Below, piece by piece: positions 34,835 through 64,000 of a DNA stretch of 64,000 nucleotides. Source of the stretch: Lytechinus pictus (Eukaryota); NCBI RefSeq assembly GCF_037042905.1, contig NC_087251.1, positions 43,960,001 through 44,024,000 on the forward strand. Direction: 5' to 3'. Numbering within the stretch: position 1 is the stretch's first letter; each line of letters opens with the position of its first letter. The notes under the pieces were generated by a model. It made no database searches, was not told where the DNA came from, and saw only the letters and a program-made list of their open reading frames with translations. The position numbers and the translations under genes were made by a program.

Positions 34835-35067
34835 ATTGTGATTCGCTATTCAATCCCAAATATTTTGTTCTATGTAAAAGCTGAACTGCACCCAAACATC
34901 CATTGTGTCATCAGATGATTGCCATATTATTTCAAGGGGCCAGAGCTTACTTGTTTGAAGTGCTTCAAACCCATGCTTCGTTATGTTTGTTTTGATAGAC
35001 CAATTGTTTAGGAATGAAGTTTAAACTCTGATCCGATCCCTCGCACGCTCTCATACAAAGTGAACTA

Positions 35068-36639: not shown

Positions 36640-38734
36640 TTAATGATAAAGGCCCCACACCAGATTTTCATTGAACTTGATTCAGTTCCAGTCACTCAAA
36701 GTAGTAATTTACGAACAGCTTTATGAAAACCCACCAGGATTGTTGGAGGATATTTGTCTTGGAGAGTGGTTGTCCCATTGGGTTGATGTCCTTGGAGTAC
36801 TTGTCCTGATTGTGGTTGTCCTTTAGGGAGTAGTTATCAAAGAGCCCCAAGGGGCAGGCCCATTTGGTAGGTCCTCTGGTCCGGGATGCCTTTCATAGAG
36901 CTTTGTAGTTGCCCTGGACTACATGGCCTACAGAAGGCGGATGTCCTTGGGGTTCTTCAAGTGTCTAGGCGTATATTTGTCCATGAGGTATGTGTCCTGA
37001 TATACAAACAGAAACAAAAGAAAGAATGAAAATCTGAAAAAGAAAATAAGAATAAAAACAAAAGGAAGAGAGAGAGAGATAGAGATATTACTACAATTGC
37101 CTTTGTACAATTGGACTCAACAATTTGATGGTGGCCCTTTTCAACTCCCTTTTACTTTGTTTTTTTCTTATTTAGTTATTTTTCTATGTACTTGCAGCAA
37201 AGCATTTCCCGTTGAGTACGTCATTTGGGCAACCCCCCCCCCCCCGATATGAAATACCCCAATAGGCCCTGTTTAATAATTTAGATATAATCATCCTTGG
37301 GTCATCAGACATCTCCCTCTCATTAAAAGATAATACTTTGACGTCACTCGGGCGAAGTTTTAGACCTTTTTTCTTTTGGGGGGGGGGGGGGCTTCTTGGG
37401 GTTTGAACTAAATAACCCAACAACAAAGCAAAGGGTCGATGCCAGAAGTGAATCAGTTCTTAAATCTCCAACACTATCCTGAATACATATATTACAAGCG
37501 TAACAGACGTGGAAGTACATTTTCGTGATGGAAGTTTTATCATTTCATGAAAACATCAGCGGCGTAACAGGGGTCGGTGGCCAGGGGGGGCAAGAGCCAA
37601 AAAATTCCCGGTCATATCATGGAACAGGCAATGGCGTAATAAGGCAAAAATTTTGAGGGGGCGATATGGCGTATCGGGCAAATATATAAGCGAGCGAGCG
37701 AAGCGAGCAAAAAATTTTGACATTTTTATTGCAAAAATACAATTTTGTGATAGGTTTTGACATAATGTTAAAAAGATGATATCATATTACACCCTCCTCT
37801 CTTTCCTTTTTTCTCTCTTTTTTTGTACGCCACGGTGAACAGGATTTTTGTTATGATTGTGAGCATCAGGGCGAAGCTCAATATGCTCGAGGGGGCTGAG
37901 TATGGCGCTTCTGGCAAGAAGTAGCTTAATATAGGTCCCGAGCGAGCGAAGCGAGTGAGATAAAAAAAGCACCTTTTCATGAGAATCTAACATGAAGATA
38001 GATTTTAACGTGATATTCAGACAAATATAATACACTTTCCTTTCTTTCCTCATTTTTTTTTGTTTGGTTGTAGAACTTTTGGGGGCCATGGTCCAAACTC
38101 ATCCATATAACAGTGCTTTATGGGTGGGGTCCAGGGCAGAGCCCCGGAACCTCTTGATATCAAAGCCATTTTAAACCTTACAGATGGCCACTTATTTTAA
38201 TCAAATTGCGTGTATATTTATATAGCTTTAACACAACACATAAATTCAATACTGTTGTGTATCGTAATCATCCAAATATTGTGAGGGGCACACCATAGCA
38301 AATGTGGGAAAATTTGTAAAAAGTCGCCAGCGAGCGAAGCGAGCCAGAAAAAAAATGGCCTGTTAAAATGAAATTCTAATTATGTGATAGATTTTTACAT
38401 CATTATAGCAAATATCATGTCATTTTTTTTTTCATTCATCTCATTTCGCTGCCTCCTTTATTTTCTTTTATTTCCCCTTGGCTGTGGAACCACCCCCCGG
38501 TACGCCAGTGCTTCAACGTAAAGCTTAATGCAGGAAGGGTCCATATAGGGGCCCGTTAGAGAACCCATTAAATGTTACAGATGAAGAACCCCCACTGCAC
38601 GGGGTCTTGACTCTTGGACAGAGCCTTTGGAGATTTAGCAAGTTTATGATATACTTTCATACGACATTATGCTATATACCATCCATTTTTTCTTCCCGCT
38701 CGTTATCTCAATCCTCGGCAGCCCGGTAGTGTAC

Positions 38735-39503
38735 TGTAACGAACTATGTTTCCGATTTAATGTCATAGAGATGTTATACGGTCTGTAAACGTAGACTATA
38801 TGGAAATCGTATGTGTAGACGTTCTATGATTTAACGAGAATTAGCCAAAATCGCACATTTTATAAACATGTTGGAGTTGTCATGAAACCTTTTGATTAAT
38901 TTATTATTAGCAAAGTTGCCTAAGCATTATCCAGTTGTTTTATTCGAGAAAGCTGGTTGATTAGCAAAGTTAATTAGGTTATTGTAGTTGTTGAAGTCAT
39001 CTTTAGTAACTGTTTTATCGAAGTGTTAAAAAATGCATAAATACGAGGAGCCAACTGCTTTTAAGGACGATCTGTGTTACGGCCCTTTACCGTAGTGCAA
39101 ATGCTGCCCTTCATCTCTTGTATCTCATTTTGCTCTGTACAATGATATATCTTTGAGAAATTAAAGGTAAAGATCAAGCATTGAACCTACACTCTGGACT
39201 ACGTTCTTTTGAGTGTTATAAAGGATCAAATGATTGGTGTACGGAACGAATGCTGGTGATTGAATAGTCGACGGATGTCCGATTGACTGAAATGAGACGA
39301 GAGAGGTGATCGATTGCAATCGACGGATTATCTGACTGGAGAAACCAGAGACGACGGTTGGTGATGGTTGTTAATCAGTCTTTTCCATAAACCATCAGCA
39401 ACGGTCATATACTTTGACCAAACGAACGCAACTGACGGTCAGGCACGGTGGCATCCTGACAAGAAAACCGTGTCAGCTGAAAGTTGGATTAGAGGCCGTC
39501 ACA
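38735..39503 (+). repeat. 5' LTR
   Basis: TGTAACG…CGTCACA. About 5 mismatches to the 3' LTR by eye. TATA-like CATAAATA near 39036. Confidence 0.97.
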
Positions 39504-39505
39504 CG

Positions 39506-39524
39506 TGGTGTCAGAAGTGGGATT
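39506..39524 (+). promoter_or_regulatory. Primer-binding site complementary to a tRNA-Leu 3' end
   Basis: TGGTGTCAGAAGTGGGATT, 2 nt after the LTR, is the complement of AATCCCACTTCTGACACCA, the 3' end of metazoan tRNA-Leu(CAA/CAG) as recalled. Confidence 0.85.
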
Positions 39525-39536
39525 GCTGCTGGTTTG

Positions 39537-39748
39537 ACTGGTTGGTGCAGAACTGGTTGGAGAAGGACTGGTTGGTCAGAACTGGTTGGATAAGAACTGG
39601 TTGGTGCAGAACTGGTTGGAGAAGGACTGGTTGGTGCAGAACTGGTTGGAGAAGGACTGGTTGGTGCAGAACTGGTTGGAGAAGGACTGGTTGGTGCAGA
39701 ACTAGTTGGCGAAGGACTGGTTGGTGCAGAACTGGTTGGCGAAGGACT
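39537..39748. repeat. 30-bp (2x15) tandem array in the retrotransposon leader
   Basis: (ACTGGTTGGTGCAGA-ACTGGTTGGAGAAGG)n. The array resumes at 44463 after the insertion. Confidence 0.93.
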
Positions 39749-39763
39749 CGTCGATGCAGATCG

Positions 39764-42700
39764 CCCAGGTAACAAGCCAACGTTGGTTCCACGTTGGAAA
39801 CTTGAAAGTCGTTGGATGTTGGAAAAACTTGATGGATTAACGTTGAATCGACGTTGGAAACTAGTTTGATGGAAAGATGATGGACAATCAACAATGACAC
39901 GACGTTGGCAACGTTGGAAACTTGTTAGTTGGAGAGTTATTGGACAGTCGACAATGTTACAATGTTGGAAACACGTTTGATTGGATAGTTGTTGAACAGC
40001 CAGCAAAGGCACAACGTTGGCAACGTTGGAAACTAGTTCGCTGGAAAGTTGTTGAACAACCGACAATGGCACAACGTTGACAAAGTTGGAAACTAGTTTG
40101 TTGGAGATTTGTTGGACGGTCGACAATGGCACAACGTTGGAGACTAGTAAGTTGGAGAGTTGTTGGACAGTCGACAATGTCACAACGTTGGAGACACGTT
40201 TGATTGGATAGTTGTTGACAGCCAGCAAAGGCACAACGTTGGCAACGTTGGAAACTAGTTCGCTGGAAAGTTGTTGAACAATCAACAATGACACGACGTT
40301 GCCAACGTTGGAAACTTGTTAGTTGGAGAGTTGTTGGACAGTCGACAATGGCACAACGATGGAAACTAGTAGGTTGGAGATTAGTTGGATAGTCGACGAT
40401 GACACAAGGTTGGCAACGTTGGAAACTAGTTCGATGGAAAGTTGTTGAACAACCAACTATGGCACAACGTTGTCAAAGATAGAAACTAGTTCGATGGAGA
40501 TTTGTTGGATAGTCGACGATGGCACAACGTTGGAAACTGGTAGATTGGAGATTAGTTAGATAGTATACAATGACACAACGTTGATAAAGCTGGAAACTAG
40601 TTAGATGGAAAGTTGTTGAACAACTGACACTGGCACAACGTTGGAAACTGGTAGATTGGAGATCAGTAGGATAGTCGACGATGACACAACGTTGGCAACG
40701 TTGGAAAGTTGTTGAACAACAGACAATGGCACAACATTGGAAACTAGTGTGTTGGAGATTTGTTGGACAGCCAACAACGTCACAACGTTGGAAACGCGTG
40801 TTTGATTGGATAGGTGTTGAACAGCCAACAAAGGCACAGCGTTGACTACGTCGGAAACTAGTTCGATGGAGAGTTGCTGAACAACCGACAAAGGAACAAC
40901 GTTGGAAACTATTTTTGGGAGATTTATTGGACAGTCGACAATGGCACAAAGTTGACAAAGTTGGAAACTAGTTTGATGGAGAGTTGTTGAACAACGGACA
41001 ATGGCACAACGTGGACAGCGTAATTGGAATAGTTTATTGGATAGTTGTTGACAGTTAACATTGACACAATGTTAGAAACTATAGTTTGTTGGATATTTGT
41101 TTGACAGTCAACATAATATCCCGGCATAATATACACAGTGTTGAGAACGTTAGAAACTGGTTCATTGGAGAATTGATAATGATATACAGACGACTACTTG
41201 CATAATTTCCAATGGGGCCAAGGGGGGGGGGGTCGATCAAGTAAGTTTGCTTGTCTATCCATGTCACCCTTGGTATCTCCCAGCAATAAGGGGAAAAGAA
41301 ATCGAGAGAGAAGGAAAATAATGGGAAGGGAAAGAGGAACTAAAACTAAGTCTAAGGGGATAACAAAAATAAAGATGGGGTAGAATAGAGAGGCTGCATG
41401 CACCGGGGGATGCAAATGTGTCGATTAATATAGAAAATAAAGGAGAAAAACAAGGAAAAAAATGTAGTTCAAGACCAGAATTTCCAGAAACGCCCTCGTC
41501 CTTTAATTTGCAGCTGGCTAGGCCTTTCACAGTAAGTACGAGATATGTCATAGGCCCACCGTCACATAACTATAGAAGAAATTGAAGAAGGAAATACAAG
41601 CATCAAATGTGCCTATTTAAAAATACCATACTATTCTGATGCGCATAATTAATCGCGACGTCGGACTCCTTCTGTCATGTCTGTGTAGTCTGCTTCCTTC
41701 AATTTTGAACTTGAAGAATCTGGCAGAATGTGGGCTGGATATAGACAATTAAATTCCAGAATATCTAGTGATCTGGAATAGTACTTATAAGCTGCATATT
41801 TAGGACCTACAATCTACAGTGGAATTTTCTTTGCACTTGCAAAGTCAGCTTCTGTGCGCGTACAGTCCGACGCTAGTATATTCGTGTAAGTAGTTGTAAA
41901 GTAGTACTGAACACCAGTCACTGCACAGTATAACATACTAACTAACCTCGTAATAAGCTTGTGTGAGTGACTAATACTAACCTCGCAATACGTGTGAGTG
42001 GGAACGAGTATGCGATACCAAGGCCAGGGCAAGGCAACAGTCATTGGGTGATTTCAATAATTTAAAGTACAGTGTTGAAATCTGGTGTTGGTGTTGTGAC
42101 AACACCGTACTTGAATCAGGCTGGTGTTGAGATTGACCTCAGAAAATATGGTGTATTTCCGGCAGTTTGTGTTGAAGGCTGGTGTTGATTGTCATCTGCT
42201 GAACCCAACACTGCACTGTGGCTGCATGGTGTTGATGATATCTACATGCAATTTCCCCATTCAGCAACACCGACCCCCAGGGATTGGGAGAATCGTGATT
42301 TAAAGTTCAGTGTTGGCGTTGATGAACTGTAGCTCACGAACAGGGGGCGAACACGACGAACCATCTCCGTAAAATTATCTTTTACATTTAAGATGAGAGC
42401 AAATCATTGGAGTTTTAATACAATTCAATGAAAAATAATATTACGCTTGGTGTTGGAGCTCAGTTCAGCAGCCCTTTCACGCTCTTAACACCGTACACCG
42501 TACTTGAAATCACCCAAATGACTTGCTACCTGGCATTCCTGCCTTATTTATTATACGCTGCCTTGAATTGACCTGGTCGGTCCTGCCTGGCCTAGCCTGG
42601 ACCGAGTGTTTTCAAACTGCAGTCAAACCTGTAGTTGCTATGTGAGGCATGCTACACTTGACGCTGAAATATCATTTAATAGTTATGGCACGAGCGAGAC

Positions 42701-44460
42701 TAGGCCATGGCCATGCATATTGAGATATCAGTTGACTTCTATCTTAATCAAAAAGAGTCAGTAGCTACGTTACTCTGAGTGAGGCCAAGTTACGCGACCT
42801 CCTTTTTAGATTTTGTAAATACTGAGAGACTGCAATTACACATGTGAGTTTTTGTGATGATTACTGACGTACGTTGCAATTGGCATTGCATACCGAGTCA
42901 TTAAACCATTGTAGACAGAAACAGAGATTGCAACTCGCAAGAAAATGTAATACATGTACATCTTAATTCTTATTACATATGCATATGTTTTTTTGGTATT
43001 AGTCTTGTTTGAGAAAAAGAGGATGTCAAAAAAGTTTGAATGCTACAAAGGCCTCAATAAATATCACACGTAATTATCTTGATTCCTCTTAATTATGTGA
43101 AGAGACTTGTAACAGAAAGAATGAAAAGAAATGAATAGCTGTAATAATAGTTGTGATGTTTTGATAGAATCATGAACAGGTTACAGATGATGATGGCACA
43201 GTGTTGAAAACTGTTTGATGGAGATGGCGCATCGTTGGATTTGTTTAAAATTAGACCAACAAAGAATCAACGTTACAACAACATTTAACCGATATTAGAC
43301 AAACATTGAATCAACGTTTACGCCAACGTTGAACTAACATTGGACTAAAGTTGAATCAACTTTCCATCAACATTGGACCAACATTATACCAACGTTGGAT
43401 CAACGTCACCCAACGTTGGACCAACATTGAACCAACGCTGCCATACCTGCCTCATCTGGACATAATGATTATGCACTCATGAATATTCATTACATCAGTA
43501 AATGACCAAAATTTTAGGTAATATTGCTATAATAATTAGAGTATTTATGTTTATTCAATATTTCCACCATGAAAAGTTTCAGAAAAGTATGTGGCTCCAT
43601 TACCATATCATTTATGATAAAAACATATTATTCTAAGTGAAATTTTCAAGGTTAAGTGTGGAAAATGATATTAACTGTATTCTGCCAAGTATAGCAAAGT
43701 TGCTCTATATATAGGAGTCAATGACAGGATACAGTGGATAGGTGTAGGATGATAGGAATAGGATATAGGATTAGGATGTAGGATTTTAGGATAGGATAAG
43801 ACATGATGATAAAGATTAGAGTGTAGAGTTGTAATGGTGGACTTCACCTTGAAACCAATTAATGTTTTGTTAATTACTGCCATACGTTGGAATTACGTTG
43901 GAGCAATGTTGGAGCAACGTTGTGACAACGTTGTAACAATGTTGGAGCAATGTTGCCAGACAACGTTGGAGCATTGTTGCTGGACAGCGTTGAACCAACG
44001 TTGTAAACATAGTTGGACTGACGATGTATGCACGTGCACGTCCATCGCTGCTTCGACGTTGCCCATCAACGTTGCAGCAACGCTGTTATTGATGACTCAG
44101 CCGACATTATACCAACGTTGGAGCATTGATGGTGGACAACGTTGAACTGACGTTGGAAATGTTGTTGGTCTGACGATGTATGGACGTGCACTTCTATCGA
44201 TGATGCAACGTTGCTTACCAACGTTGTAGCAATGTTGTATTTGACTATTTAGCCAACATTGGATAAACGTTGCCAGACAACGTTGAAACATTGTTGCTGG
44301 ACAACGTTGAACTGACGTTGGAAATGTTGTTGGTCTGACGATGTATGCGCGTGCACTTCTATCGATGATGCAACGTTTGCCTGCCAACGTTGAGGCAACG
44401 TTGGGAAAAAATTTCCCAACGTTGATCCAACGTTGGTCCAACGCTGTATTGTTACCTGGG
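39764..44460. mobile_element. 4.7-kb non-autonomous CMC/EnSpm-like DNA transposon inserted in the LTR-element leader
   Basis: 12-bp TIR CCCAGGTAACAA / TTGTTACCTGGG. Massive subterminal arrays of the palindrome CAACGTTG (39776-41160 and 43240-44448). No transposase ORF and no clean TSD. Confidence 0.8.
42046..42515. mobile_element. MITE (TIR GGGTGATTTCAA) nested in the CMC-like element
   Basis: GGGTGATTTCAA … TTGAAATCACCC. Same termini as 56100-56339. Confidence 0.78.
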
Positions 44461-44560
44461 GAACTGGTTGGCGAAGGACTTGGTTGGAGCAAAAATTGGA
44501 GAAAGATCAATCGGTTTACAACAGTTGACAATCACCATTTTCTGAATTAAGCTGTCGAAC

Positions 44561-47500
44561 ATGGAAGCAGTACAGGGGAATCCTGCTTATCATTTAACAC
44601 CTGCGGAGCTGATCCAACAAGTGGAAGACCATATTACAGAAATCAACGAACAACTCACTGATTTGCACCGAACATCTGGGTCTCCACTGCCACGTCGTCA
44701 CTCACAGCAGAGCACTCCGCTCTTCCAACATTCTGGTGATACAGGGATTGCTAGCATGCCTCCCACTGGCGTTAGGACATCGGCTATGAATGACGGAGTG
44801 CGAGAAACAGAACCATCTCTTCAACCGAGAAGGCTGATCAGAGGGAGTACCGCACATGAGATTGCGGCTGACTCAACAACTCCTATCGGTTATCCCCGCA
44901 TGCCGCCTGTAGGAAATTCCCACCAAACATTTGATAACTTGCCTACGACGTCTGACCACACAGTAGAGGGAATTCGGCAGAGCCCTCGAGTCAACGCGCC
45001 CCTTCCCCGGCCTTCCTTTCCTGGGTCATATAGTCCTCAGATGTACCAACAGTTTCCAGTTAGGGATGAAACTGCCTCAAACTATCAATTCCCTGGCCGA
45101 ATGAGCGACCACCATGATCGATTTAATAATCGACCATCTTTCAAAGGACAAACAGAGGACATTAATGCAAAGCCTTGCATGTTACCAGATCGCTTCGACG
45201 GGAAGGCTCCAATCCTTGATTACTTGGAGCATTTCGAGGCATGTGCTGTCATCAACAACTGGACGGACAGGCAGGCATCACATTTCCTGGCAGCTAGTTT
45301 GAGGGGTCCGGCACTGAAACTTTTGGCGAAGCATGGTGAGATGGAGCTGCCATATCAGGAGTTGGTCAACAGGCTTAAACAACGTTTTGGTCCTTCAGGG
45401 AAGGCTGATGTATTTCTAGCAGAGCTAAGAGCACGACGTAGGAAGCCACAAGAGACACTCCAAGAACTTGGGCAAAGCATCCGAGACCTGGCAGGGATGG
45501 CCTATCAAGAGTTTGACCCAGATGGTCAAGATAAACTAGCCCGAAGTCATTTCATGGATGCAGTGGTGAACCCGGCAATTCGAGAAGGTCTGTTTCGAGC
45601 TCAACCACGTACCTTGGATGAGGCCATACAGGCAGCTCTGAACACAGAGGCATTCCTTAAGATGGAGACAGAGCGAAGCGAATTCAGACATTCTCCCCGG
45701 CACAGTCATAGTCGGGCACTGACCAACAATGAGCAGCCGCAGAGCCCTGCTAGCCCCAATACAGCAGAAGTCGTCAGAAAGATGGAAAAGATGCTAGCTG
45801 ATCTTACAGCTAGGTTGGATTTGCTAACCAAATATGTAAGCAGTGCGTCACAGGGAGGCAACACCGGACCGCAACTCCAAAAGAGACGACAGTATGACGG
45901 AATCTGCTATAACTGCGGACAGCAGGGACATTTCGCCCGAAATTGTCCTTATGAAGAGAAAGACACCAAACGCTGTCACCTTTGTCATGGAACCGGACAT
46001 TTCAAGAAGGACTGCCCAAATAATCTACTAGATATTGAGAGGGGGCAATCCAGTCATTCCAGTCCAGATGGAAAAGATTCAGGAGGGAACAGACAGCAAA
46101 CATCTAGACCGGATGGCCAACCAGGAGCTGGACACGTTCGAGTTGGTACGTCAGGAAACGTCAAGCGGCAAGGCATTTTCATTGAGTCTAAAGTCAATGG
46201 GCAGTCAGTAACATTCCTGATTGATACTGGATCGTCGCAATCTTTTATTGCCGACAATGTTTTCAACATGATCGACAAGGAAAAGCAGCCAGTCTTGGAG
46301 GAAATGAATAACACGGTGCAGCAGGCTGATGGATCACCTTTAGACACAAGGGGAAAAGCCGCGATGGAACTGCACATTGGAGGATTGGTCTTCATGGTCG
46401 AACTGACCGTGGCTACATTGAAGAATGAGGGTATCATCGGTCTTGACCTGTTAATTCAGATGCATGCTGAACTAGATTGCCATAAGATGGAACTTCGAAC
46501 ACCCTGGCAATCCATCCCATGTAAAGACCAGGAGGGCAGACACTTTTGCTGCAGAGTCGTGGCCTCCGAAACCAGTATCGTCCCTGCCGGGCATGAGGTT
46601 GTTCTCAAAGGAGAAGTGGCTGGATGTAACTCCATGACCATTAGCGGGGTCGGATTGTTGGAAGCCCCTACCAGTTCGACAGAATTGAGCAAGAAGGGCC
46701 TCCTAGTAGCCAGGGCTGTGGTTCCAGCAGATGCAGAAACTTTGCCAATAAGGATCTTCAACTCAACTAGAAGGCAAACCACTGTCAAGAAGGGCATGAT
46801 GGTGGCAAGTTTGAGTTCGATTCAAGAAGTAGAAGATATGGAGGAAGCCCGCTGTCCCCAATCTGACCAGATGTCGAACTCTGTACCAAAACATCTAGAA
46901 AATCTGTATCAACGAAGTACAGAGCAACTCCCTGAGCACCAGCGTGAAAAAGTGGTGGCATTGCTACAGGATTTTGCAGACATCTTTGCACAAAGTGCAA
47001 ATGACCTGGGGAAGACCAGCCTGGTACAGCATTCGATCAACACAGGGGATGCAAGACCGGTAAAACAGCCAGCAAGACGACATCCAGCAGGCCAGAGGGA
47101 AGAGATCGACAGGCAACTTGGTGACTTACTGACTAAAGGGCTGGTCGAACCGGTGTCAGGTCCATGGTCGTCTAATGTTGTTCTGGTTACCAAGAAGGAT
47201 GGCACCAAGCGGTTCTGTATAGATTACCGTCAACTGAACGAGGTGACAGTGAAGGACGCATACCCCCTACCCAGGATTGACGACACCCTGGATTCCTTAA
47301 GTGGTGCCAAGTGGTTTTCAACTCTAGATCTTGCCAGTGGTTATTGGCAAGTCCAGTTGGATGAACAAGCCAAGTTGAAGTCAGCATTCATGGCCAATGG
47401 TGGGTTGTATGGATGGCGTGTCATGCCCTTTGGACTGTGCAATGCGCCCGCCACCTTTGAACGGCTGATGGATAGAGTACTGTCCGGGTTGACATGGAAG

Positions 47501-49609
47501 ATGTTGCTTGTTTACTTAGATGACATCATCGTGTATGGGGAGACGGTTGAGGAGGAACTAGCTAGACTAAGAATTGTCTTCCAACGTTTGAGGGAATCTG
47601 GATTGAAGCTAAAACCGTCAAAGTGTCATCTGTTCCGGACCAGTGTCGTCTATCTGGGGCATGTGGTATCAGCAGATGGAGTCACAACAGACCCAGAAAA
47701 GACAGAAGCCATCAGAAATTGGCCAACTCCACGGTCCGTTAAAGAAGTCCGAAGCTTTATTGGACTAATGTCCTACTATCGACGCTTTGTGAAGGGATTT
47801 GCAATGGTGGCAAAACCATTACATCAATTGACGGAGAAGAACCGAGAATTTGAGTGGACAAAAGAGTGTCAGGAAGCGTTTGAAGAGCTGAAACGGAGAC
47901 TGATTACTCCACCTATCCTTGCTTATCCATCTGCAGAAGGGCGCTACATCTTGGACACCGATGCTAGTGACATGGGCATAGGGGCTGTCCTTTCTCAAGT
48001 GCAAGGAGGTGTCGAGAAGGTGATTGCCTATGCTAGTCGCACTCTACACAAGACAGAGCTGAACTACTGTGTCACCAGGAAGGAGCTTTTGGCAGTGGTG
48101 GTATTCCTGAGGCAGTTCCGCCAATACTTATATGGCCGACATGTCACCATCAGAACAGACCATGGATCTCTGCAATGGCTGGTTCACTTTAAAGATCCAA
48201 GAGGCCAGTTTGCTAGATGGATGGAGATTATAGCTGAGTACGACTTTGACATCCAACATAGGCAGGGACGGAGTCATGCGAATGCTGATGGTCTTTCCCG
48301 GAAACCTTGTTTGCAGTGCTGCCGGGAGGATGAAGGTTGTGTTGGACAGATTATGGCTACATGGGAGGTTGCACCCGAGCCAGCAACAAACATTGGTGAC
48401 TTACAACGAGAAGACGAGAATATCAGCCCTGTGCTGAATGCAAAGACCTCAGCAACCAAACCTTTGGAGGAAGAAAGTGCATCATGGTCAGTTAAAGCTA
48501 GAAGACTCCTTGAACACTGGGGAGCACTTGTTGTCACCGATGGGGTACTCTACCGACGCTGGGAATCTGAGGATGGAGCAACAATTCGCCGGCAGTTGGT
48601 CGTCCCAAAAGTCATGATCAAGGACATCATCCAGGAGACTCATGCAACCTTAACTGGAGGTCATTTTGGCGTGGAAAAGTCAATGGGAAGGGCTAGACTA
48701 AAGTATTACTGGGTCGGAATGAAAGAGGATTTCCGTTCTGCTCTAAGAGAATGTGACATCTGTGCTAGACGGAAAGTACATGGCCAAACAAGACGAGCCC
48801 CCTTGCAGCAAAGAATAAGTGGTTCACCCATGGAGAGGATTGCTTTAGACATCCTTGGCCCTCTACCCAAGACCGACAATGGCAACAAGTATGTTCTTGT
48901 CGTTGGGGATTACTTCACAAAATGGATGGAGGCATACCCAATCCCCGATGAGAGAGCTGAGACGGTGGCAGAGAAACTTGTCACAGAGTTTACATGTCGG
49001 TTTGGGGTTCCTAGGTATATCCATTCAGACCAGGGGCGCAACTTCGTGTCTGAAGTCTTCACAGAAGTCTGCAAGATCCTGGGAGTCACCAAAACCAGAA
49101 CCACTGCCTATAATCCCAAGTCCGATGGGCTAGTCGAAAGGTACAACCGTACCCTGGTGGATACAATCGCTGCATTCCTGGACATGGATGGAGAAAGGAA
49201 TTGGGATCAATTCATCCCCTTCGCTACATGTGCTTATAGAAGTTGCCCCCAGGGATCAACCGGTGAAACACCCAACATGTTAATGTTAGGGCGAGAAACA
49301 ACCATGCCTATGGACTGGGATCTCCCTCCTCCTGAGACCGCCGAATATGATGACCAGACAGACTACAGTACGTGCCAGGCTCCGGAATCGTCTAGAAAGA
49401 GCTCACAAGGTAGCAAGAGAATCCTTGAAGACAGCGAGTCGTCGGCAGAAGTCGTTCTACGACAGGAAGGTGCATACAGCTCTTTATGCTGTGGGACAAT
49501 TTGTATGGCTACGAAAGAAAACCAGAGAAAAGGGCCGCTGCCCGAAACTGCAACCACGATGGCTTGGCCCTTACCTAGTTGTTACTCGCCTGTCAGATGT
49601 CACAGTTAG
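44561..49609 (+). CDS. Gag-Pol polyprotein (capsid, 2 CCHC knuckles, protease, RT, RNase H, integrase core); out of frame after ~49367
   Basis: CYNCGQQGHFARNC and CHLCHGTGHFKKDC knuckles, LIDTGS protease, YPLPRID/MPFGL/YLDD RT, LDTDASD RNase H, and HHCC plus LDILG/HSDQG/GLVER integrase motifs. Confidence 0.97.
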   Translation: MEAVQGNPAYHLTPAELIQQVEDHITEINEQLTDLHRTSGSPLPRRHSQQSTPLFQHSGDTGIASMPPTGVRTSAMNDGVRETEPSLQPRRLIRGSTAHEIAADSTTPIGYPRMPPVGNSHQTFDNLPTTSDHTVEGIRQSPRVNAPLPRPSFPGSYSPQMYQQFPVRDETASNYQFPGRMSDHHDRFNNRPSFKGQTEDINAKPCMLPDRFDGKAPILDYLEHFEACAVINNWTDRQASHFLAASLRGPALKLLAKHGEMELPYQELVNRLKQRFGPSGKADVFLAELRARRRKPQETLQELGQSIRDLAGMAYQEFDPDGQDKLARSHFMDAVVNPAIREGLFRAQPRTLDEAIQAALNTEAFLKMETERSEFRHSPRHSHSRALTNNEQPQSPASPNTAEVVRKMEKMLADLTARLDLLTKYVSSASQGGNTGPQLQKRRQYDGICYNCGQQGHFARNCPYEEKDTKRCHLCHGTGHFKKDCPNNLLDIERGQSSHSSPDGKDSGGNRQQTSRPDGQPGAGHVRVGTSGNVKRQGIFIESKVNGQSVTFLIDTGSSQSFIADNVFNMIDKEKQPVLEEMNNTVQQADGSPLDTRGKAAMELHIGGLVFMVELTVATLKNEGIIGLDLLIQMHAELDCHKMELRTPWQSIPCKDQEGRHFCCRVVASETSIVPAGHEVVLKGEVAGCNSMTISGVGLLEAPTSSTELSKKGLLVARAVVPADAETLPIRIFNSTRRQTTVKKGMMVASLSSIQEVEDMEEARCPQSDQMSNSVPKHLENLYQRSTEQLPEHQREKVVALLQDFADIFAQSANDLGKTSLVQHSINTGDARPVKQPARRHPAGQREEIDRQLGDLLTKGLVEPVSGPWSSNVVLVTKKDGTKRFCIDYRQLNEVTVKDAYPLPRIDDTLDSLSGAKWFSTLDLASGYWQVQLDEQAKLKSAFMANGGLYGWRVMPFGLCNAPATFERLMDRVLSGLTWKMLLVYLDDIIVYGETVEEELARLRIVFQRLRESGLKLKPSKCHLFRTSVVYLGHVVSADGVTTDPEKTEAIRNWPTPRSVKEVRSFIGLMSYYRRFVKGFAMVAKPLHQLTEKNREFEWTKECQEAFEELKRRLITPPILAYPSAEGRYILDTDASDMGIGAVLSQVQGGVEKVIAYASRTLHKTELNYCVTRKELLAVVVFLRQFRQYLYGRHVTIRTDHGSLQWLVHFKDPRGQFARWMEIIAEYDFDIQHRQGRSHANADGLSRKPCLQCCREDEGCVGQIMATWEVAPEPATNIGDLQREDENISPVLNAKTSATKPLEEESASWSVKARRLLEHWGALVVTDGVLYRRWESEDGATIRRQLVVPKVMIKDIIQETHATLTGGHFGVEKSMGRARLKYYWVGMKEDFRSALRECDICARRKVHGQTRRAPLQQRISGSPMERIALDILGPLPKTDNGNKYVLVVGDYFTKWMEAYPIPDERAETVAEKLVTEFTCRFGVPRYIHSDQGRNFVSEVFTEVCKILGVTKTRTTAYNPKSDGLVERYNRTLVDTIAAFLDMDGERNWDQFIPFATCAYRSCPQGSTGETPNMLMLGRETTMPMDWDLPPPETAEYDDQTDYSTCQAPESSRKSSQGSKRILEDSESSAEVVLRQEGAYSSLCCGTICMATKENQRKGPLPETATTMAWPLPSCYSPVRCHS

Positions 49610-50267
49610 GATTCAACAGTCACGGAGGTCTAAACCACTGGTCGTACACATTGACAGGCTGAAGCCCTATCAAGGCGTAAGGCTTCCCACTTGGGAATTC
49701 AGACCCGCTGGAGAAGACTTGGTCCCGGAGAATTCAGCGGATGAAGAATCAGGACAAAGTTCGCCAAGTAGTGCCAACAGGCATGACACAACCGACTCCC
49801 CAGCAGACATCCTGCCAGATGTTGATGTGCCTGGAGACCCACCAGACCAGACGCCAGCAGGTGAAGACGCATCTGATAGACCAGAAGATGACACGTTAAC
49901 AACTGACCATGATACTGAAAGTTCCCCAGAAGACGTTATGCCAGATGTTGATGTGCCTGGAGATCCACCAGACAGAAGCCATGCCGCAGATGATACCCTT
50001 GCAGGTGAACCACATGAAGCTTCGGCGGACGACCACACTTTGGAAAGCTCCTCAGGAGACATTCCACCCAATGACGATGTACCTGGAGAGCCACCAGACA
50101 ACAGTCCAGCAGACGCAACAGATGGAGCAACAGCAGGGGGTACAACTAATGAACAATTACCCACTGCTACAGGAGAAACCACACCTGAAAAAGAAACTTC
50201 AGCCAGACGGTATCCCTCCCGTGACAGACGACCTGCTACATACCTGCGGGATTATTTTGTGACATGA
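49368..50267 (+). pseudogene. Integrase C-terminal part (GPY/F domain plus acidic repeats), frameshifted +1 relative to gag-pol
   Basis: RLRNRLERAH…QKSFYDRK…KLQPRWLGPYLV…VVHIDRLKPY, three DVPG(D/E)PPD repeats, terminal RRYPSRDRRPATYLRDY. Confidence 0.9.
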
Positions 50268-50589
50268 GTTTCCTACAACTTTAACCAGGACTAAGTTACC
50301 AGTTCTGAAGGATACATGATAATGAACTCAATTGCAATCTTCAAGCTTTTTACGGATACCGGACGTCAAAAATATTGACTTTTGTGGTCTTTAATCAATG
50401 CATAATTTCAGTGTTGCTTTGCATTGTATAAAAAAAAGTTGTACTGAATTACCTGTTACAAGAAACTATATGACAAAGTCTTTATTGTGTTTCGAAACTT
50501 AAAGTTGAAATTATGTTGTTTTGAAGTTTTTCGTTACCTTCTGTTTAGTAGTTGACAGTTTGTTATTAATTAGCTTGGGGACCAAGCTC

Positions 50590-50603
50590 GAGAGAGGAGG
50601 GAG
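50590..50603 (+). promoter_or_regulatory. Polypurine tract
   Basis: GAGAGAGGAGGGAG, 3 nt upstream of the 3' LTR. Confidence 0.88.
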
Positions 50604-50606
50604 TCG

Positions 50607-51375
50607 TGTAACGAACTATGTTTCCGATTTAATGTCATAGAGATGTTATACGGTCTGTAAACGTAGACTATATGGAAATCGTATGTGTAGACGTTCTATG
50701 ATTTAACGAGAATTAGCCAAAATCGCACATTTTATAAACATGTTGGAGTTGTCATGAAACCTTTTGATTAATTTATTATTAGCAAAGTTGCCTAAGCATT
50801 ATCCAGTTGTTTTATTCGAGAAAGCTGGTTGATTAGCAAAGTTAATTAGGTTATTGTAGTTGTTGAAGTCATCTTTAGTAACTGTTTTATCGAAGTGTTA
50901 AAAAATGCATAAATACGAGGAGCCAACTGCTATGAAGGACGTTCTGTGTTACGGCCCTTTATCGTAGTGCAAATGCTGCCCTTCATCTCTTGTATCTCAT
51001 TTTGCTCTGTACAATGATATATCTTTGAGAAATTAAAGGTAAAGATCAAGCATTGAACCTACACTCTGGACTACGTTCTTTTGAGTGTTATAAAGGATCA
51101 AATGATTGGTGTACGGAACGAATGCTGGTGATTGAATGGTCGACGGATGTCCGATTGACTGAAATGAGACGAGAGAGGTGATCGATTGCAATCGACGGAT
51201 TATCTGACTGGAGAAACCAGAGACGACGGTTGGTGATGGTTGTTAATCAGTCTTTTCCATAAACCATCAGCAACGGTCATATACTTTGACCAAACGAACG
51301 CAACTGACGGTCAGGCACGGTGGCATCCTGACAAGAAAACCGTGTCAGCTGAAAGTTGGATTAGAGGCCGTCACA
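50607..51375 (+). repeat. 3' LTR
   Basis: 769-bp direct repeat of 38735-39503. Confidence 0.97.
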
Positions 51376-53816: not shown

Positions 53817-54041
53817 CACTGTAAAAACTGCGGTGTTAAAACTGACACCAGTTTGTGTTAATAGAGGACCACACCCCGAGGTGTTAAAATTACACCCTAG
53901 AGATTGAACAGAACACCAATGAGTGTAAATGTAACAACCAAAGGTGTTGTAATAACACCTATAGGTGTAAAACTAACACTGGTGTAAAATAACTGGTGTG
54001 GTCCTCTATGTACACCGGTTAACACCACAGTTTTTGCTGTG
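53817..54041. mobile_element. CAC-terminal (CMC-like) MITE, 2-bp TSD CA
   Basis: CACTGTAAAAACTGCGGTGTTAA … TTAACACCACAGTTTTTGCTGTG. Second copy at ~56602-56841. Confidence 0.82.
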
Positions 54042-54457
54042 CAGATTCAATAAATTTAGATTTGATAAAGTGCGAATACGTTCTGCCCATGAATTAAAAT
54101 CAAGTATGGCAAAATATAGGCTTCTATGACGTGAAAAGTCTGTTTTGGGTGTTTTTAAGTTCATCATATTGTTTGAATAGAACTGTGTGGGTAGTATGAT
54201 GCTTAAGACTAATCCTATTACATATAAAATGTGGTAAAAGCTTATTGAGTAACATAAATATTAATACAAGTGCTTGTTTTTTTTTTCATCTGATGACGAT
54301 TGGTTCAGCATTTAATTTGGTGTATAATGCTGAATTTGAATTAAGGGCCCTATTCTGCGTTACAATGAAACGATTAATTTGGGTTTTCTCTGCATTTCTC
54401 CAAATTATGAACAATAAAAAATGACATAGCAGTTTGAGATATAATTATGGTCTCACA

Positions 54458-54612
54458 CACTGGCGGATACAGGGGGGGGGGGCACAGTCAAATTTTTTCG
54501 TGGACGAAATACCCTTAATTTTTGGTTAAACAATTTCTTTTTTTGCTTGTCAAATTTTTCCTCGGGAAAGTGTGCCCCCCCCCCCCTTCGAAAAATCCTG
54601 GATCCACCCCTG
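54458..54612. mobile_element. hAT-like MITE, 8-bp TSD GTCTCAC(A/G)
   Basis: CACTGGCGGATACAGG / CCTGGATCCACCCCTG with flanking duplication. Confidence 0.75.
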
Positions 54613-54789
54613 GTCTCACGCGTTTTAAACAGTAGGCCTATATAGACTTGAAGTAATTTTGCTTTTCATCTTTAGGAATGGTGTCAAAAGACTTAACGAT
54701 GTCAAGCTCAGTCAGTGATTATTTTGGCAAAAAGAAGCTGCAGAAAACTGCTTATCTAATAAAAGAGAGCCAATGGAGTAAATTAGAAA

Positions 54790-54893
54790 GTCAAAAGGGG
54801 CCTAAGCTTTCGATCCTAGCAGAATCTTCGTCGGAGGCAAAAATGCCTCCGACGAAGATTCTGCTAGGATCGAAAGCTTAGGCCCCTTTTGAC
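54790..54893. ncRNA. Perfect inverted repeat (50-bp arms, 4-nt loop) made of two hammerhead-like motifs (54800-54838 minus, 54845-54883 plus)
   Basis: The arms are exact reverse complements. Each contains stem I, a CCGACGA core, stem II, GAAA, palindromic AGCU and UH. Confidence 0.7.
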
Positions 54894-55235
54894 CCAGTGA
54901 TTATTTTGTAAGAAAGAAAAGACAGTCTCCGTTTTATCGAGATATTGTGAGCAAATTAGCAAGTTTTAGGTTTTAGATACGTCCACAAATGAATTATTCA
55001 TAACATTTGCAATATCTTTATGGTTTACAAAATCAGTATTTCCGCATTGAATGCAATTTATTGACTGATTCGACTTTGCCATCAGAGTTCGTAAGAGTTT
55101 CCAAATTTCTGAAGGTTTGCCTTTATTTTTCAATATACAGTAGTTTTAGTAAAATAGTCTCTCTTATATTTGCGAATAACAGTTGTTACATAGTTTCGAG
55201 ATGATTTATACGTATTCCAATCACTCTGTAATTGA

Positions 55236-55837
55236 AGGACAAGTCCACCCCAACAAAAAGTTGATTTGAATAAAAAGAGAAAAATCCAACAAGCATAACA
55301 CTGAAAATTTCATCAAAATCGGATGTAAAATAAGAAAGTTATGACATTTTAAAGTTTCGCTTAATTTCACAAAACATATGCACATCCTGGTCGGTATGCA
55401 AATGAGGAGACTGATGACGTCACCCCTCACTATTTCTTTTGTATTTTATTATATGAAATAGCGAACATTCTATTTTTCTCCTCATTGTCAAGTGATACAA
55501 AGATTAATTCCTCCCTGAACATGTGGAATTATTATTGTTTAAAACTTTAAAACTATATGGTTCAGTCAAGTTGCTCCTTATTGTCAAATCTATGAAAAGT
55601 GAAATATTGTATAATAAAAAATTCAAACAATAAAAAACAAAAGAAATAGTGAGTGATGGACATCATCGACTGACTCACCTAGTTGTGCATATCACTGTTT
55701 TGTGAAAAATAAGCGAAACTTTAAGATGTCATAACTTTCTTATTTTACATCCGATTTTGATGAAATTTTCAGCACTATGCTCGTTTGATTTTTCTCTATT
55801 TATTCAAGTCAGCATTTTCCTTGGGTGGACTTGACCT
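55236..55837. mobile_element. Kolobok-like MITE family D
   Basis: TTGA-AGGACAAGTCCACCC … GGGTGGACTTGACCT-TTAA. Partial copy at ~63255-63572. Confidence 0.85.
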
Positions 55838-56099
55838 TTAAGTTACTCGAGCTTTTGCTATATGTTTGTCCCTTTCTCTCACGAGCATTCTTATTTCATC
55901 ATTCATCCAAGGGGCACCTTCCTTCTAAACGCGCCTGCGTTTTAGGGGAGCATGTTTATCAATAATTTTCCGAAAAGCAGTGTACCATTTACTGTAAGAA
56001 TTTGAAACATCATTCGTACTTAGTGTTTCACACCAAGATTCAGCATATAAATCATTACATAGGCTGTTGAAATTAATGTTTTTCAGGTTTCGAGATTCA

Positions 56100-56601: not shown

Positions 56602-56841
56602 CACCGATAAAAACTGCGGTGTTAAAACTTACACCAGTTGGTGTTAATAGAGGACCACACCCCGAGGTGTTAAAATTACACCCTAGAGATTGAACACAAC
56701 ACCAAAGAGTGTAAATGTAACCACCAAAGGTGTTGTAATAACACCTATAGGTGTAAAACTAACACCACAAATTTAACACCGGTGTAAAATAACTGGTGTG
56801 GTCCTCTATGTACACCGGTTAACACCACAGTTTTTGCTGTG
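56602..56841. mobile_element. CMC-like MITE, second copy of the 53817 family
   Basis: Near-identical sequence to 53817-54041. Confidence 0.82.
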
Positions 56842-57237
56842 TATAATCTTTGGTTTTTTTAATCTAGATACTTTGAGACATTTTCAAATTCTACAAAACA
56901 ACTCGTTAGTCGTTAAGGCCAATATAAAACGGTTTTAACGCAGAGTCATTCAACGTTACATTTTAGTTCATTAATAACTGAATATCTAATTGAATTCCGT
57001 ATATAAAATACAATACATCCTCCTTGTCTATTTCTATAACTAAACGAATTGTGTTCCATCTACATCGAGCGCGCAGTCATTTATGTTGTCATCCAGTCTG
57101 GTTTCATGCAAAGTGAATACATCGATACTCTGAAGGGTACTTCTTCGAGATTCTTTAAAAGGGAGCAAACTTTAAAATGGCAGATCTTCAAGCCATGATG
57201 CATACTTAAGTTTCTAAATACTGATTTACTAATCCTG

Positions 57238-57474
57238 CACTGCAAAAACTCTGGTGTTGATTTAACACCAGCCCGGAATCTATATATGTCCACACCAGAG
57301 AAGTATTGAAACAACATCAGTTTGGAATCAAACCAATGTTGTTTTAATACTAATTGGTGCTGTATAAACACCTTTCTGGTGTTAGACCAAAACGAAACTG
57401 GTGTTGTCTAACACTTCTCTGGTGTGGACTAGATTCCGGGCTGGTGTTAAATCAACACCGGAGTTTTTGCAGTG
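57238..57474. mobile_element. CACTG-terminal (CMC-like) MITE, 2-bp TSD TG
   Basis: CACTGCAAAAACTCTGGTGTTGATTTAACACCAGCCCGGAATCTA and its reverse complement at the right end. Confidence 0.85.
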
Positions 57475-59780: not shown

Positions 59781-60410
59781 GTAAGTGTGTTTTGTTGCTA
59801 ATAATGTAGCGATAAAGCATGGTAAAAAAAAGTTACTTTCATGTCTTTGCATGGCATTTTGCCCCTCGTATGCACGCTAGCGTATCTGCGCAATTCTGAT
59901 CAAAGAAGATGCCCAATGATCGCAAACCTTACATGTAGGCCTACATGTATAATATTGCATCTATAATTTTGACAGATATAATTTAAATTTCAGGCATTTC
60001 ACCAAAAAGACCTCCAAATACCGTCTCTCTTTTAAAAACCACTGAATTGTTTGTAAAGTGAATTGATATGCATGCTTTGTGCACCTGTCACCATGTTTTG
60101 AGAAATTAGGCCAAACATTAAAAAATTCACTTATTTTACTTCCAATTTTTATGAAATGTTTGTTGATTTTTTTTGTTTATCCAAAGCGATATTTTGTTGT
60201 GGTCAATATGACCTTTAGGACACACAACTTGGCAATTGTCACTGCAATGGCAAATAAACTTTAGCTGTACTTGGTAACATTAAAATGTGTCTTCAGAAAA
60301 TCACGTTGTAAAAAGTTCAAATGCCAAGGTCTCAAGTTCAAGCTTAGCTGCACTGTTGCAACAAGGGAAAGTGCATGTAGGTGAAACTATATATTAAAGG
60401 GAGACTTAAT

Positions 60411-60720
60411 GGCCCGTATTCTGAAGTCGGGTTTAACTTAAACTCAGGTTTAAAGTTGTGGTTTAAGTATGGACAGCCAATTGTTACATAATCACTAACA
60501 GTAGAGATATCATACGTCAGCTCATTCGGCTCTCATATCATTTATAATTGTGTAGGAAGTATAAATAGATGATTGTCTTCACCATCAATGAATCAGGAAA
60601 GAGCACAGTAAACATAAGAAACATACAACTTAATAAAAATTTTGATACTTTTGGCTTCCCATATTTAAACCACAACTTTAAACCTGAGTTTAAATTAAAC
60701 CCGACTTCAGAATACGGGCC
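60411..60720. mobile_element. PIF/Harbinger-like MITE (AAT TSD)
   Basis: GGCCCGTATTCTGAAGTCGGGTTTAA … TTAAACCCGACTTCAGAATACGGGCC. Confidence 0.88.
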
Positions 60721-61681
60721 AATGTATGTAGCCCTTTCTAGAATATGGGCATTTTCACCACAGATGGACACAGAGGCAAAAAAATCAAATTGATATTCAT
60801 GTCAAATGCTTTATGTTTTTTAATAAAACAAGACCTGAAGTTTCTGAGACAAAATTTTTTTCCGACTCTGGCAGCCATTTTTTATTTCAAAATGGCTGCC
60901 AAAGTATGGATACAAATTAGTGTTGAAAATAGTATATTGATACATATTTTGTTTTGACAGATTTTTAAAGAACAGGTTTGATCATGATGTTTTTGCCTGT
61001 GATTTAGCTTGCTATTATAACACTTTTTAAAATCCCACAGAAAGAAACACCAGTAATTCATTCATCTGATAAAAAAACATTGATGAAGTATGTGATATGG
61101 TATGTAATGTCAGTTACCGAAAACATTAACTTTTTTTTCTCATTTCCTGGAAAAGAGGATATATTATATGAAACTTGGTAGATTTCCTCTCTAGGTAACA
61201 CCCCTCCCTTCTACACCAAAATTAAAGATTACCAATTAACAATGAAGCCATAGGGTACCATTAAATATATGTAATGTCAGTTACCAAGTGGAAAATGTAA
61301 TGTCAGTTACCGAGATGTAATGTCAGTTACCATGATAAAACGTTGGTTACCAATATTGAAATGCAAATATGTGGTCAATTTTATGGTGAAGAAATATTGT
61401 ATACTTGTTATTTAAGTCTTTCACTTTAAAAGTCACACCAGAAGGAGCTTGCTATTGACTTTTAAAAGGTATAGTTCACAAGGAATACTATATGAAATTA
61501 TGAAGGAAGTTGCATTCCCATCGTGCAAAAAAATTACTATGAAATTGTTTTGTACATGAACTTACCAAGTACCTAATTGTTTGTATCAGACAATTTTTTT
61601 TTTTTTTTTTTTTTTTGGGGGGGGGGAAGGGGGTACTTTTCCCAACCTATTGCCTAAATTTGCAACATTTTTTAAGCTTAA

Positions 61682-62264
61682 AGGAGAATGAAACTCTTGG
61701 AGCAAGTTAGCTTTTGTGAAAGCAGAAAAATCAAAGAATAAGATCAACAAAACTTTGAGTAAAATAGGACAAGCAAAAAAAGAGTTATGAGCATTTTAAT
61801 GTCGAGATCACTAATGCTATGGAGATCCTCCCATTGGCAATGCGACCAAGATCTGTGATGTCACACACGTACAACTCTCCCATTTGGACACTGAAAATAT
61901 ACCCCAAAACATCTCTTTTTGCTCATTCTAATCATATGACAAACGATTCATCAATGATATAATGTTGTGAAACCTCTGTACTTGTCATCTCATAAAGAGA
62001 ACACCTCACCTTGTGATAGACTCTATAAAAGTGAGAATATAAGTGAAATAAGTACTAAAGTAATGAGGGAGTTGTACGTGTGTGATATCACAGATCTTGG
62101 TCGCATTGCCGTTGGGAGGATCTACATGGCACTAGTGATCTCAATATTCGAATGCTCATAACTTTCTTATTATTCATTCAATCTTCCTCAAACTTTCAAC
62201 AATATGTTTCTTTGATTTTTCTCTTTGATATGGATTCAGCTGGTTTCAAGGGTTTCATTCTCCT
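61682..62264 (+). mobile_element. Kolobok-like MITE family C, copy 2 (TTAA TSD)
   Basis: Near-identical to 31556-32139. Confidence 0.9.
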
Positions 62265-63254
62265 TTAACATTGTGATGAAGGGGATTTCCAGGGTCCCTT
62301 TTTTAGTTTCTAGGATTCTTTTGAGCATTGCCTCGCTAAAAGTAAATTCCTAGTTTTTATACCTGTTAGTAGTGTGGATGTGTGATACAATTTTGTTTTT
62401 GGTTTACAAGTATAGATGAAAAGTGAAATTTGACAGTTCTGATCAATGTTGCATGGATCTACTAAAACTGGTTTTTTTCTAATTTACAAATAGTTCAGTT
62501 TCAGTTTAGAAGCTGGAGTTTATTTTTTGTTGACAGCTTAAAAAAGAAATTAGCAAAGAAAATGATTAAACAAATTATGAAGAGAATTGAAATCCGACAG
62601 ATATGAACAAGCATTGCTTGCACTGACCAGAATAGAAATCAATAAAACTACATGGCTGCATGCAGGGTTGGCGCGTTTTAAACGGTGTGTTTTAAAACAT
62701 GTTTTAAAACGCGTTTTAAAACACCCGTTTTTTTTACAAAAAAAACGTGTTTTAAAACACCTCATAGACTCGTGTGTTATAAATATGCAGGGATGTGATT
62801 TTACATGAATTTATTTTTTATACTTTTATTTCTTAATTAGTTTATTATTTTCTTCTAACTAAATCTCTTTCTCAACACCACTCTTTTTCTCCTCTCTCTT
62901 TCCCCCCTTATTCTCCCTTTCTCCATTGCTTTGTCATGTTCCTTTCCTCCTGTTCAATTGTGCACATCAATCCATATTTAAGAATATTCTCATTTTAACA
63001 AACATCTGAGTGTTGTGCTCACTTTTAGACAGGGAAAGAAACACTATTTAAAATGAGCTCAAATATGTAATAGTAGTACTTGAATGAAATGGAAGTGTTG
63101 CACAAACATAATAATATTTTGCAAATAGACTGTACATGTATATCTGACATTGTAACCTTGAGGTACACACGAAATTAGGTGAAACTTTGCGCTTCGTAAA
63201 GATGAAGAAAAGTAATTTAATTCAGTATAAGATAATCAGCTAGCAAACCTTTTT

Positions 63255-63572
63255 TTCCTCCCTGAACATGTGTGGAACTACCATTGTTTTAACATTTTTT
63301 GGTTCAGTCAAGTTGGTCATTATTATCAAATCTGTAAAAATTGAAATATTGTATTGTTCAAACAATTAAAAAAAAATAGTGAGGGGCATTATCAACTCTC
63401 TCATTTGCACATCACTGAGTTGTAATAAATGTTTTGTGAAAAATAAGCGAAATTTTAAAATGTTATAACTTTCTTATTTTACATCCGATTTTGATGTAAT
63501 TTTCAGCATTATGCTTGTTTGAATTTTTTCTACTGATTCAAATCAAACATTTTTCTGGGGTGGACTTGACCT
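63255..63572. mobile_element. Truncated Kolobok-like MITE family D
   Basis: Matches the right half of 55236-55837 and ends GGGTGGACTTGACCT-TTAA. Followed by a TTAA-CCCT piggyBac-like start. Confidence 0.75.
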
Positions 63573-64000
63573 TTAACCCTCCTAACACTCCCAGGGGACC
63601 GTAATGGCCCCCTTAAAAATTTCTATGATAAATCCATAAGCACAACAGGGCCACGCCATATTGTTCAAGACTTTTTTTTGGATACATGCATGGATATGTG
63701 GTTATGATATTACCATGGAGCTATCAACACATTAATAGCTCAATGATATTACAAGTGCATGACAGACCAGAATTGCTCAATATCGTGATTTCATGTATAA
63801 AGCCAATGCTAATTTTTCGCCAACATTTTTATCTGTATCAATATTTGTACTTTTTGTTAATGATTGGAAAATTATTGCCAATAATTTCCATTAAAAAACT
63901 GATAAAAAAAACACAAAAGTAACCACAAAACTGTAGATAAGAAATATGTAAAAAAAAACAGTTAAAACAAACATTAAAAAAACAATTTGATCAGAATTCC

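Follow-up and report, generated by a model that had tools for sequence, protein, structure and literature searches.

Features of the locus

The window, that is, the whole 64-kb stretch of Lytechinus pictus DNA analyzed here, contains a lysocardiolipin acyltransferase 1-like gene on the + strand (16552 to 29777; exons at about 16552 to 16671, 17486 to 17626, 28566 to 28745, and 29286 to 29777). An exon of this gene matches at 98% a L. pictus lysocardiolipin acyltransferase 1-like protein, the only named match out of five. A young Gypsy-type LTR retrotransposon occupies 38735 to 51375, with 769-bp LTRs (38735 to 39503 and 50607 to 51375) that are 99.35% identical. Its gag-pol frame spans 1,687 aa (44546 to 49606), the C-terminal domain of its integrase is encoded in a different frame (49290 to 50264), and a degenerate 1.3-kb tandem array is found inside the element (39778 to 41113). 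MITE-type inverted-repeat elements are present at 34413 to 34836, 36066 to 36643, 55228 to 55846, 57238 to 57474, and 60410 to 60721, with further copies of this type at 53822 to 54048, 56608 to 56848, and 63255 to 63576. Near-identical dispersed or tandem repeats of 470 to 715 bp (92 to 98%) occur at 31551 to 32143 and 61677 to 62268, at 19432 to 19899 and 21558 to 22025, and at 7461 to 8639.

A perfect palindrome within a 168-bp insertion

At 54790 to 54893 lies a 104-base palindrome, the arms of which (54790 to 54839 and 54844 to 54893) are complementary at 50 of 50 positions and enclose a 4-nt loop, AAAA, as a preliminary description of this DNA had claimed. Among the perfect inverted repeats of the window with loops of up to 30 nt, no other has arms this long, the runner-up reaching 18 nt. 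The predicted hairpin, at −101.8 kcal/mol (z = −24.7), was equaled in stability by none of 200 shuffled sequences.

The 14-mer CAGTGATTATTTTG at 54713 to 54726 is repeated exactly at 54895 to 54908 on the + strand, a match with a chance of about 1e-8 per site. The preliminary description had proposed this direct repeat as a possible target-site duplication, and its position at the very boundary of the repeat family described below agrees with that proposal; it is likely a target-site duplication around the whole unit. That unit is larger than had been described. The 63 bp that separate the first duplication from the palindrome are element tail, so the insertion comprises 168 bp (54727 to 54894), arranged in the order duplication, tail, arm, inverted arm, duplication.

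The tail, a 63-nt 3' extension read on the minus strand (54727 to 54789), is attached to the left arm only. The left arm bears a hammerhead-like motif on the minus strand (54838 to 54800, predicted cut after 54804), and the right arm bears it on the + strand (54845 to 54883, core CCGACGA at 54849 to 54855, predicted cut after 54879). The two meet head to head at 54840 to 54843, where the AAAA loop, closed by CA/TG, lies 2 to 6 nt upstream of stem I. The right arm has no tail and stops 10 nt past stem I. It is followed by a single C (54894), which differs both from the next element base and from the base preceding the left duplication and is either untemplated or mutated. At the other boundary the 3' ends of the family align up to 54725, and the last 2 nt of the left 14-mer fit the element end too, an overlap that is possibly microhomology.

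BLAST within the window revealed a solo copy of the element end at 24467 to 24541 on the minus strand (motif, 24522 to 24484), antisense within an intron of the lysocardiolipin acyltransferase-like gene. Its positions 24467 to 24526 are identical to 54783 to 54842 at 59 of 60 sites. It has no tail and has one A fewer at the position of the loop, after which upstream element sequence follows (15 extra bases), and no duplication of more than 6 nt surrounds it. Since this copy carries a single motif, the arm is a repeat unit in its own right that also occurs without a mirrored partner. No longer upstream piece of the element was found in the window. A Pfam scan of 105 of the 138 stop-to-stop frames of at least 70 aa in the window (the other 33 comprised 11 of low complexity and 22 that overlap the Gypsy open reading frame, the tandem array, or the acyltransferase exon) detected no GIY-YIG domain and thus no frame combining it with a reverse transcriptase; the only reverse transcriptase was that of the Gypsy-type pol, which is unrelated to the palindrome.

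The repeat family in related organisms

Four sequencing runs from two related organisms (X1, X8, X21, and X24) were aligned to 54600 to 54843, a 244-bp stretch covering the left flank and one arm. The runs come from relatives and do not hold this exact locus (best word share, 0.18). A total of 1,234 contigs from X1 and 242 from X8 aligned, as did 736 of 8.7 million reads from X21 and 675 of 12.9 million reads from X24. Hardly anything aligns left of 54717, with no X21 read and at most one X24 read in the flank from 54600 to 54716, whereas depth stands at repeat level from 54725 to 54842. This step at 54725 shows that the 63 bp preceding the palindrome, back to the first 14-mer, are element sequence, and that 54725 to 54842 represents the 3' terminus of a high-copy sea urchin repeat, which is dispersed and continues upstream. 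The tail of the window copy has a private change at 54742, where 236 of 236 X21 reads differ from it. No empty target site was seen in the four runs over the aligned stretch. The repeat is present at two loci in the window, and 97 to 98% of its RNA reads continue into unlike sequence. Unlike flanks, together with both strands being read about equally, are as expected for dispersed copies that are transcribed passively.

Among the ends listed, the 3' ends of the family fall into two groups in all four runs. The distal group lies at 54725, with loose ends just before this position (17, 5, 124, and 90 across the runs), and the proximal group lies at 54779 to 54793 (for example, 67 ends at 54782 in X21 and 91 at 54785 in X24). 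The family thus has two preferred 3' ends, in keeping with an optional one-sided 3' tail. The left arm of the palindrome uses the distal end, and the right arm stops at the equivalent of 54790, inside the proximal group. Ends at 54789 and 54793 are probably in part alignment breaks, where a variant (54788) and an insertion (54792) interrupt the match, so that the proximal group is uncertain by several bases and does not separate the two routes of synthesis discussed below.

Most copies are single-armed: 50, 15, 283 (X21), and 328 (X24) records in the four runs extend past 54842 in the manner of the solo copy. Opposite-strand joints were assessable within the aligned stretch, which ends at 54843, and those seen in RNA only may be library artifacts. 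A joint from 54840 to 54842 is present in one X1 DNA contig (depth, 17.8) and in three X24 reads, and a joint from 54842 to 54842 is present in nine X24 reads with eight different starts, all from one of the two relatives (organism A); none is found among the joints listed for X8 and X21. Head-to-head inverted copies are therefore seen at the palindrome and again in organism A. As both joints of organism A differ from the junction in the window, head-to-head joining just upstream of stem I seems to have happened more than once, and none of the three junctions is more than about 6 nt away from the 5' edge of this stem.

On the minus strand, the tail from 54789 to 54738 resembles the 3' end of an intron, with what we take to be a branch-point-like CUAAU, a pyrimidine tract, and an acceptor-like UUUUCAG (in the family consensus; 54742 differs in the window copy). 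The proximal group of 3' ends falls on the CUAAU. No splice joint in the tail is among the joints listed for the four runs.

A minimal hammerhead-like motif with a C4 core

Positions 54845 to 54883 can be parsed as stem I GCCU/AGGC, core CCGACGA, an unpaired A, stem II, GAAA, GC, and UU, with six pairs in stem II, two of them G-U, and a stem II loop of 3 nt. The parse given in the preliminary description is correct as it stood, and the motif is present on each strand. The minimal type I layout that was claimed for it also fits the published consensus, except at core position 4. Minimal hammerheads (min-HHRs) are defined, in the sections of PMC4209133 consulted here, by an unpaired base after A9, a G10.1-C11.1 pair, a long stem II, a short stem I, and palindromic 15.2-16.2. 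The window motif has a U-rich lead, a 4-bp stem I, the unpaired 9.1, G10.1-C11.1, a long stem II, GAAA, palindromic 15.2-16.2, and UH. With the min-HHRs of metazoan Penelope-like elements (PLEs) in the same sections it shares the U-rich lead, the 4-bp stem I, the 6-bp stem II, the absence of loop 3, the palindromic AGCU, and the UH site. It differs in having C4, whereas all 56 of the 56 listed representatives have U4, a count that is biased because the search descriptor fixed the core.

A descriptor of the published min-HHR consensus that allowed at most one core mismatch, composed after the motif had been seen, matched three sites in the window (54849 on the + strand and 54834 and 24518 on the minus strand) and none in 60 random 64-kb sequences of equal dinucleotide makeup. 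Rfam recognizes no hammerhead: there were no matches in the whole window at the gathering threshold, only sub-threshold hairpin models at the palindrome when ranked by E value, and no matches on the solo copy at E values of up to 10. The 39-mer motif is about as stable as its shuffled versions (z = −0.28).

All three window copies have C at core position 4, a departure from the CUGANGA core (U4). The preliminary description had noted this atypical base, which turns out to be a trait of the whole family and not damage in this copy, C4 being the consensus in both related organisms, with no U4 at 3% or more in the four runs. A C4 core is predicted to weaken self-cleavage, and from its sequence the motif is a doubtful ribozyme. 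There was no pile-up of read ends at the predicted cut among the ends listed, which is a weak test in fragmented RNA-seq of relatives. A designed double hammerhead between two RNAs (−16.1 kcal/mol, against −25.4 kcal/mol for the best dimer fold) is not preferred. Within one read-through transcript, the hairpin would outcompete the ribozyme fold, as had been claimed (−101.8 against −9.4 kcal/mol).

The only common variant within the 39-nt motif is at N7, a free core position (279 of 468 X24 reads, about half of the depth in X1, and 2 of 458 in X21). Other changes in the motif are below 10% each, several of them at CpG sites. No compensatory stem changes were seen in the four runs, for which the data are per-site variants from copies that are mostly at least 95% alike, too similar for covariation to be tested. 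Sites varying at 15% or more in X24 number 0 of 38 among the non-N7 motif positions and 6 of 73 downstream, a difference that is not significant (P = 0.09). Among the X1 variants listed, G-to-A changes at the three CpG sites of the motif, in the sense strand of the element, are found in 28, 20, and 16 contigs at 54811, 54829, and 54832, respectively, and C-to-T changes at the partner positions (54812, 54830, and 54833) are found only at 54812, in 10 contigs. The change of C4 to U, which would restore the canonical core, is below 3% among the same variants.

The insertion as a probable product of Penelope-like retrotransposition

Most probably, the palindrome belongs to a 168-bp insertion in which two ends of a dispersed repeat lie head to head, the repeat being likely the hammerhead-bearing 3' end of a PLE and the insertion the result of a single abortive integration. 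PLE insertions carry inverted pLTRs head to head, an optional one-sided tail of 30 to 40 bp, duplications, and palindromic junctions, according to the parts of PMC3846280 and PMC8557442 consulted. This published layout supports the earlier suggestion of a tiny Penelope-like footprint. Compared with the units of endonuclease-positive PLEs in these parts of the two papers, the insertion is alike in its head-to-head end repeats, palindromic junction, one-sided extension, likely target-site duplication around the whole, and strong 5' truncation. It is unlike them in being only 168 bp long, with no remnant of an open reading frame, and in belonging to a repeat known without its parent element. Its tail of about 55 to 65 nt also exceeds the published range, and its duplication of 14 bp exceeds the 8 to 10 bp reported for rotifer PLEs in the portion of Arkhipova et al. 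(2013, PMC3846280) seen. These two departures count against a PLE origin, as do the lack of a reverse transcriptase/GIY-YIG frame tied to the family among the frames scanned, the absence of true relatives from the viral, metagenome, and prokaryote collections scanned, the failure to see an empty site or compensatory stem changes in the four runs, and the nonconsensus position 4. We regard the PLE-type insertion layout as well supported and the assignment to the PLE family, made from the repeat end and not from a coding parent, as putative.

Within a PLE origin, the insertion could have formed as follows. The element endonuclease would nick the target strands at points 14 bp from each other, and both of the resulting target 3' ends would act as primers for reverse transcription of element RNA, with one start at the distal site (giving the arm with the tail) and the other at the proximal site (giving the arm without it). 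Both cDNAs would halt just past the hammerhead and be joined head to head through a 2-nt CA/TG match, and fill-in would yield the 14-bp duplication. Such a two-primer route, which we hold to have slightly better than an even chance if the PLE origin is right, is modestly favored because the right arm terminates inside the proximal group of ends, at the position equivalent to 54790. The loop-free joint in organism A also fits the annealing of two strands. Under the same assumption, a single cDNA folding back on itself is nearly as credible, somewhat short of even, and the exact 2-bp stem with its A loop fits such a fold-back equally well. Arkhipova et al. (PMC3846280, in the part consulted) explain the inverted repeats by self-priming on an antisense template.

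Biochemical work on PAc, the Poseidon element of Anolis carolinensis, bears on these steps. As described in the sections of Frangieh et al. (2024, PMC11167929) available here, the PAc protein nicks and extends both strands in vitro, reverse transcription starts at two internal sites that bound the tail, and hammerhead cleavage is not needed for insertion in vitro. The window family resembles PAc in that two 3' ends are preferred beyond the hammerhead, in its AT-rich target, and in the possible priming on both strands; it differs in the wider spacing of the two ends and in being known from sequence alone.

The insertion contains no open reading frame and is predicted to be inert, since its motifs are on opposite strands, no double hammerhead can form within one transcript, and read-through would give a 50-bp hairpin. 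Min-HHR pairs in opposite strands 100 to 700 bp apart are on record, as is low cleavage even in dimers (Cervera and De la Peña 2014, PMC4209133, sections consulted).

It is tempting to go one step further and suppose that a PLE family has spread in two sea urchin genomes with a C4-fixed hammerhead core that is disabled or nearly so, the fold having been kept as a landmark and not as a catalyst. This proposal is tentative and, in our estimate, rather unlikely. The fold would be kept because reverse transcription halts shortly beyond stem I, at the place where the mirror half is joined on. The same core change has been described in a viroid hammerhead, in which U4C considerably lowered activity in vitro while infectivity was retained (cited in the part of Perreault et al. 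2011, PMC3088659, consulted). There it is a rare variant of a full hammerhead with tertiary contacts, whereas here two organisms have it as the consensus of a minimal motif that is present in high copy. That paper was the only source of a U4C hammerhead in our literature search, which returned no CCGANGA hammerheads and did not extend to Lunse et al. (RNA Biol 14:1499), the likeliest source of core variants.

Alternative origins

The repeat might instead be a noncoding, PLE-dependent element, similar to a retrozyme or a SINE, that uses PLE enzymes and has no coding parent with such an end; the palindrome would have arisen in the same way. The absence of a linked open reading frame among the window frames speaks for this alternative. 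Moreover, animal non-LTR retrozymes, which are short, noncoding, PLE related, and equipped with a type I hammerhead, have been proposed to be nonautonomous PLE derivatives (10.64898/2026.07.22.740005; see also PMC7229834; both as far as consulted), and a passenger might tolerate a weakened core more easily. Retrozymes are, however, defined in these sources by tandem head-to-tail units, and none is present at either window locus. Nor are there same-strand back-joints among the joints listed within the 244-bp stretch, from which a longer tandem unit would escape. Reads run into unlike flanks, and the motif is of the minimal PLE type, not the canonical type I of most metazoan tandem repeats (PMC4209133, sections consulted). 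Overall, we consider a nonautonomous origin improbable.

A MITE or fold-back DNA transposon that resembles a hammerhead by chance is far less probable still. The window is rich in inverted-repeat elements, Rfam finds no hammerhead, and the 39-mer is not unusually stable, all of which such an origin would accommodate. Against it, the duplication encloses the palindrome together with the 63-nt tail and not the palindrome alone, and the family is mostly single-armed, opposite-strand joints being confined to 12 X24 reads and one X1 contig among the joints listed. Terminal inverted repeats flanked directly by the duplication in most copies, as expected of a MITE, are thus not what the read alignment displays, and a MITE origin is largely refuted by it. 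Chance resemblance is also at odds with the absence of descriptor matches in 60 random windows and with pattern scans of other sequences. The pattern found 0 loci in metagenomes and, when relaxed, 23, and it found 51 loci in viral contigs; four pairs in both stems occurred in 0 of the 51 viral loci and in a single motif (2 of 23 loci) of the metagenomes, with a palindromic stem III in none of them.

Retention by the host as a hairpin RNA, a precursor of siRNA or microRNA that silences the family, appears very remote. A perfect 50-bp stem would be a Dicer-type substrate, the related junction from 54840 to 54842 is both present in the DNA of organism A and read through in its RNA, and Rfam microRNA models match below threshold. 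These matches, however, are generic hairpin scores far under gathering (for example, 56 versus 80 bits). The arms match one another and the solo copy exactly, which points to a very recent event and not to conservation, and the left flank is nearly devoid of reads. Finally, fold-back chimeras do occur in long-read and cDNA data, and the perfect symmetry and the low word share of the runs with the locus would allow for an artifact of sequencing or assembly, but the unique, nonmirrored flanks on both sides, the exact 14-bp duplication, the asymmetric ends that match the two end groups of the family, and the occurrence of a similar joint in a DNA contig from a different organism leave this explanation practically no probability.

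Implications of a C4-fixed family

If it stems from a PLE, the insertion is a commonplace product of retroelements of a known class, and what is of interest is that C4 is fixed in the core and that junctions lie at the edge of stem I. Some PLE clades have no hammerhead motif (PMC8557442, in the part consulted), and cleavage was dispensable for PAc insertion in vitro (PMC11167929). A successful family with U4C fixed may bear on whether cleavage matters; if the fold does serve as a landmark, this family would offer a ready-made natural test of whether cutting by PLE hammerheads is necessary. Many minimal two-armed insertions of this kind could reveal how head-to-head halves are made. CUGANGA-based searches and Rfam overlook families such as this C4 repeat.

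An exact 24-mer of the family was found neither in prokaryote genomes nor in viral contigs. In two metagenome contigs that share the same stretch (L055, 1994 to 2033; L061, 1471 to 1510), a motif with a CCGA core has a stem II of four pairs, a stem I of five pairs, and a nonpalindromic stem III, and it is compatible with chance.
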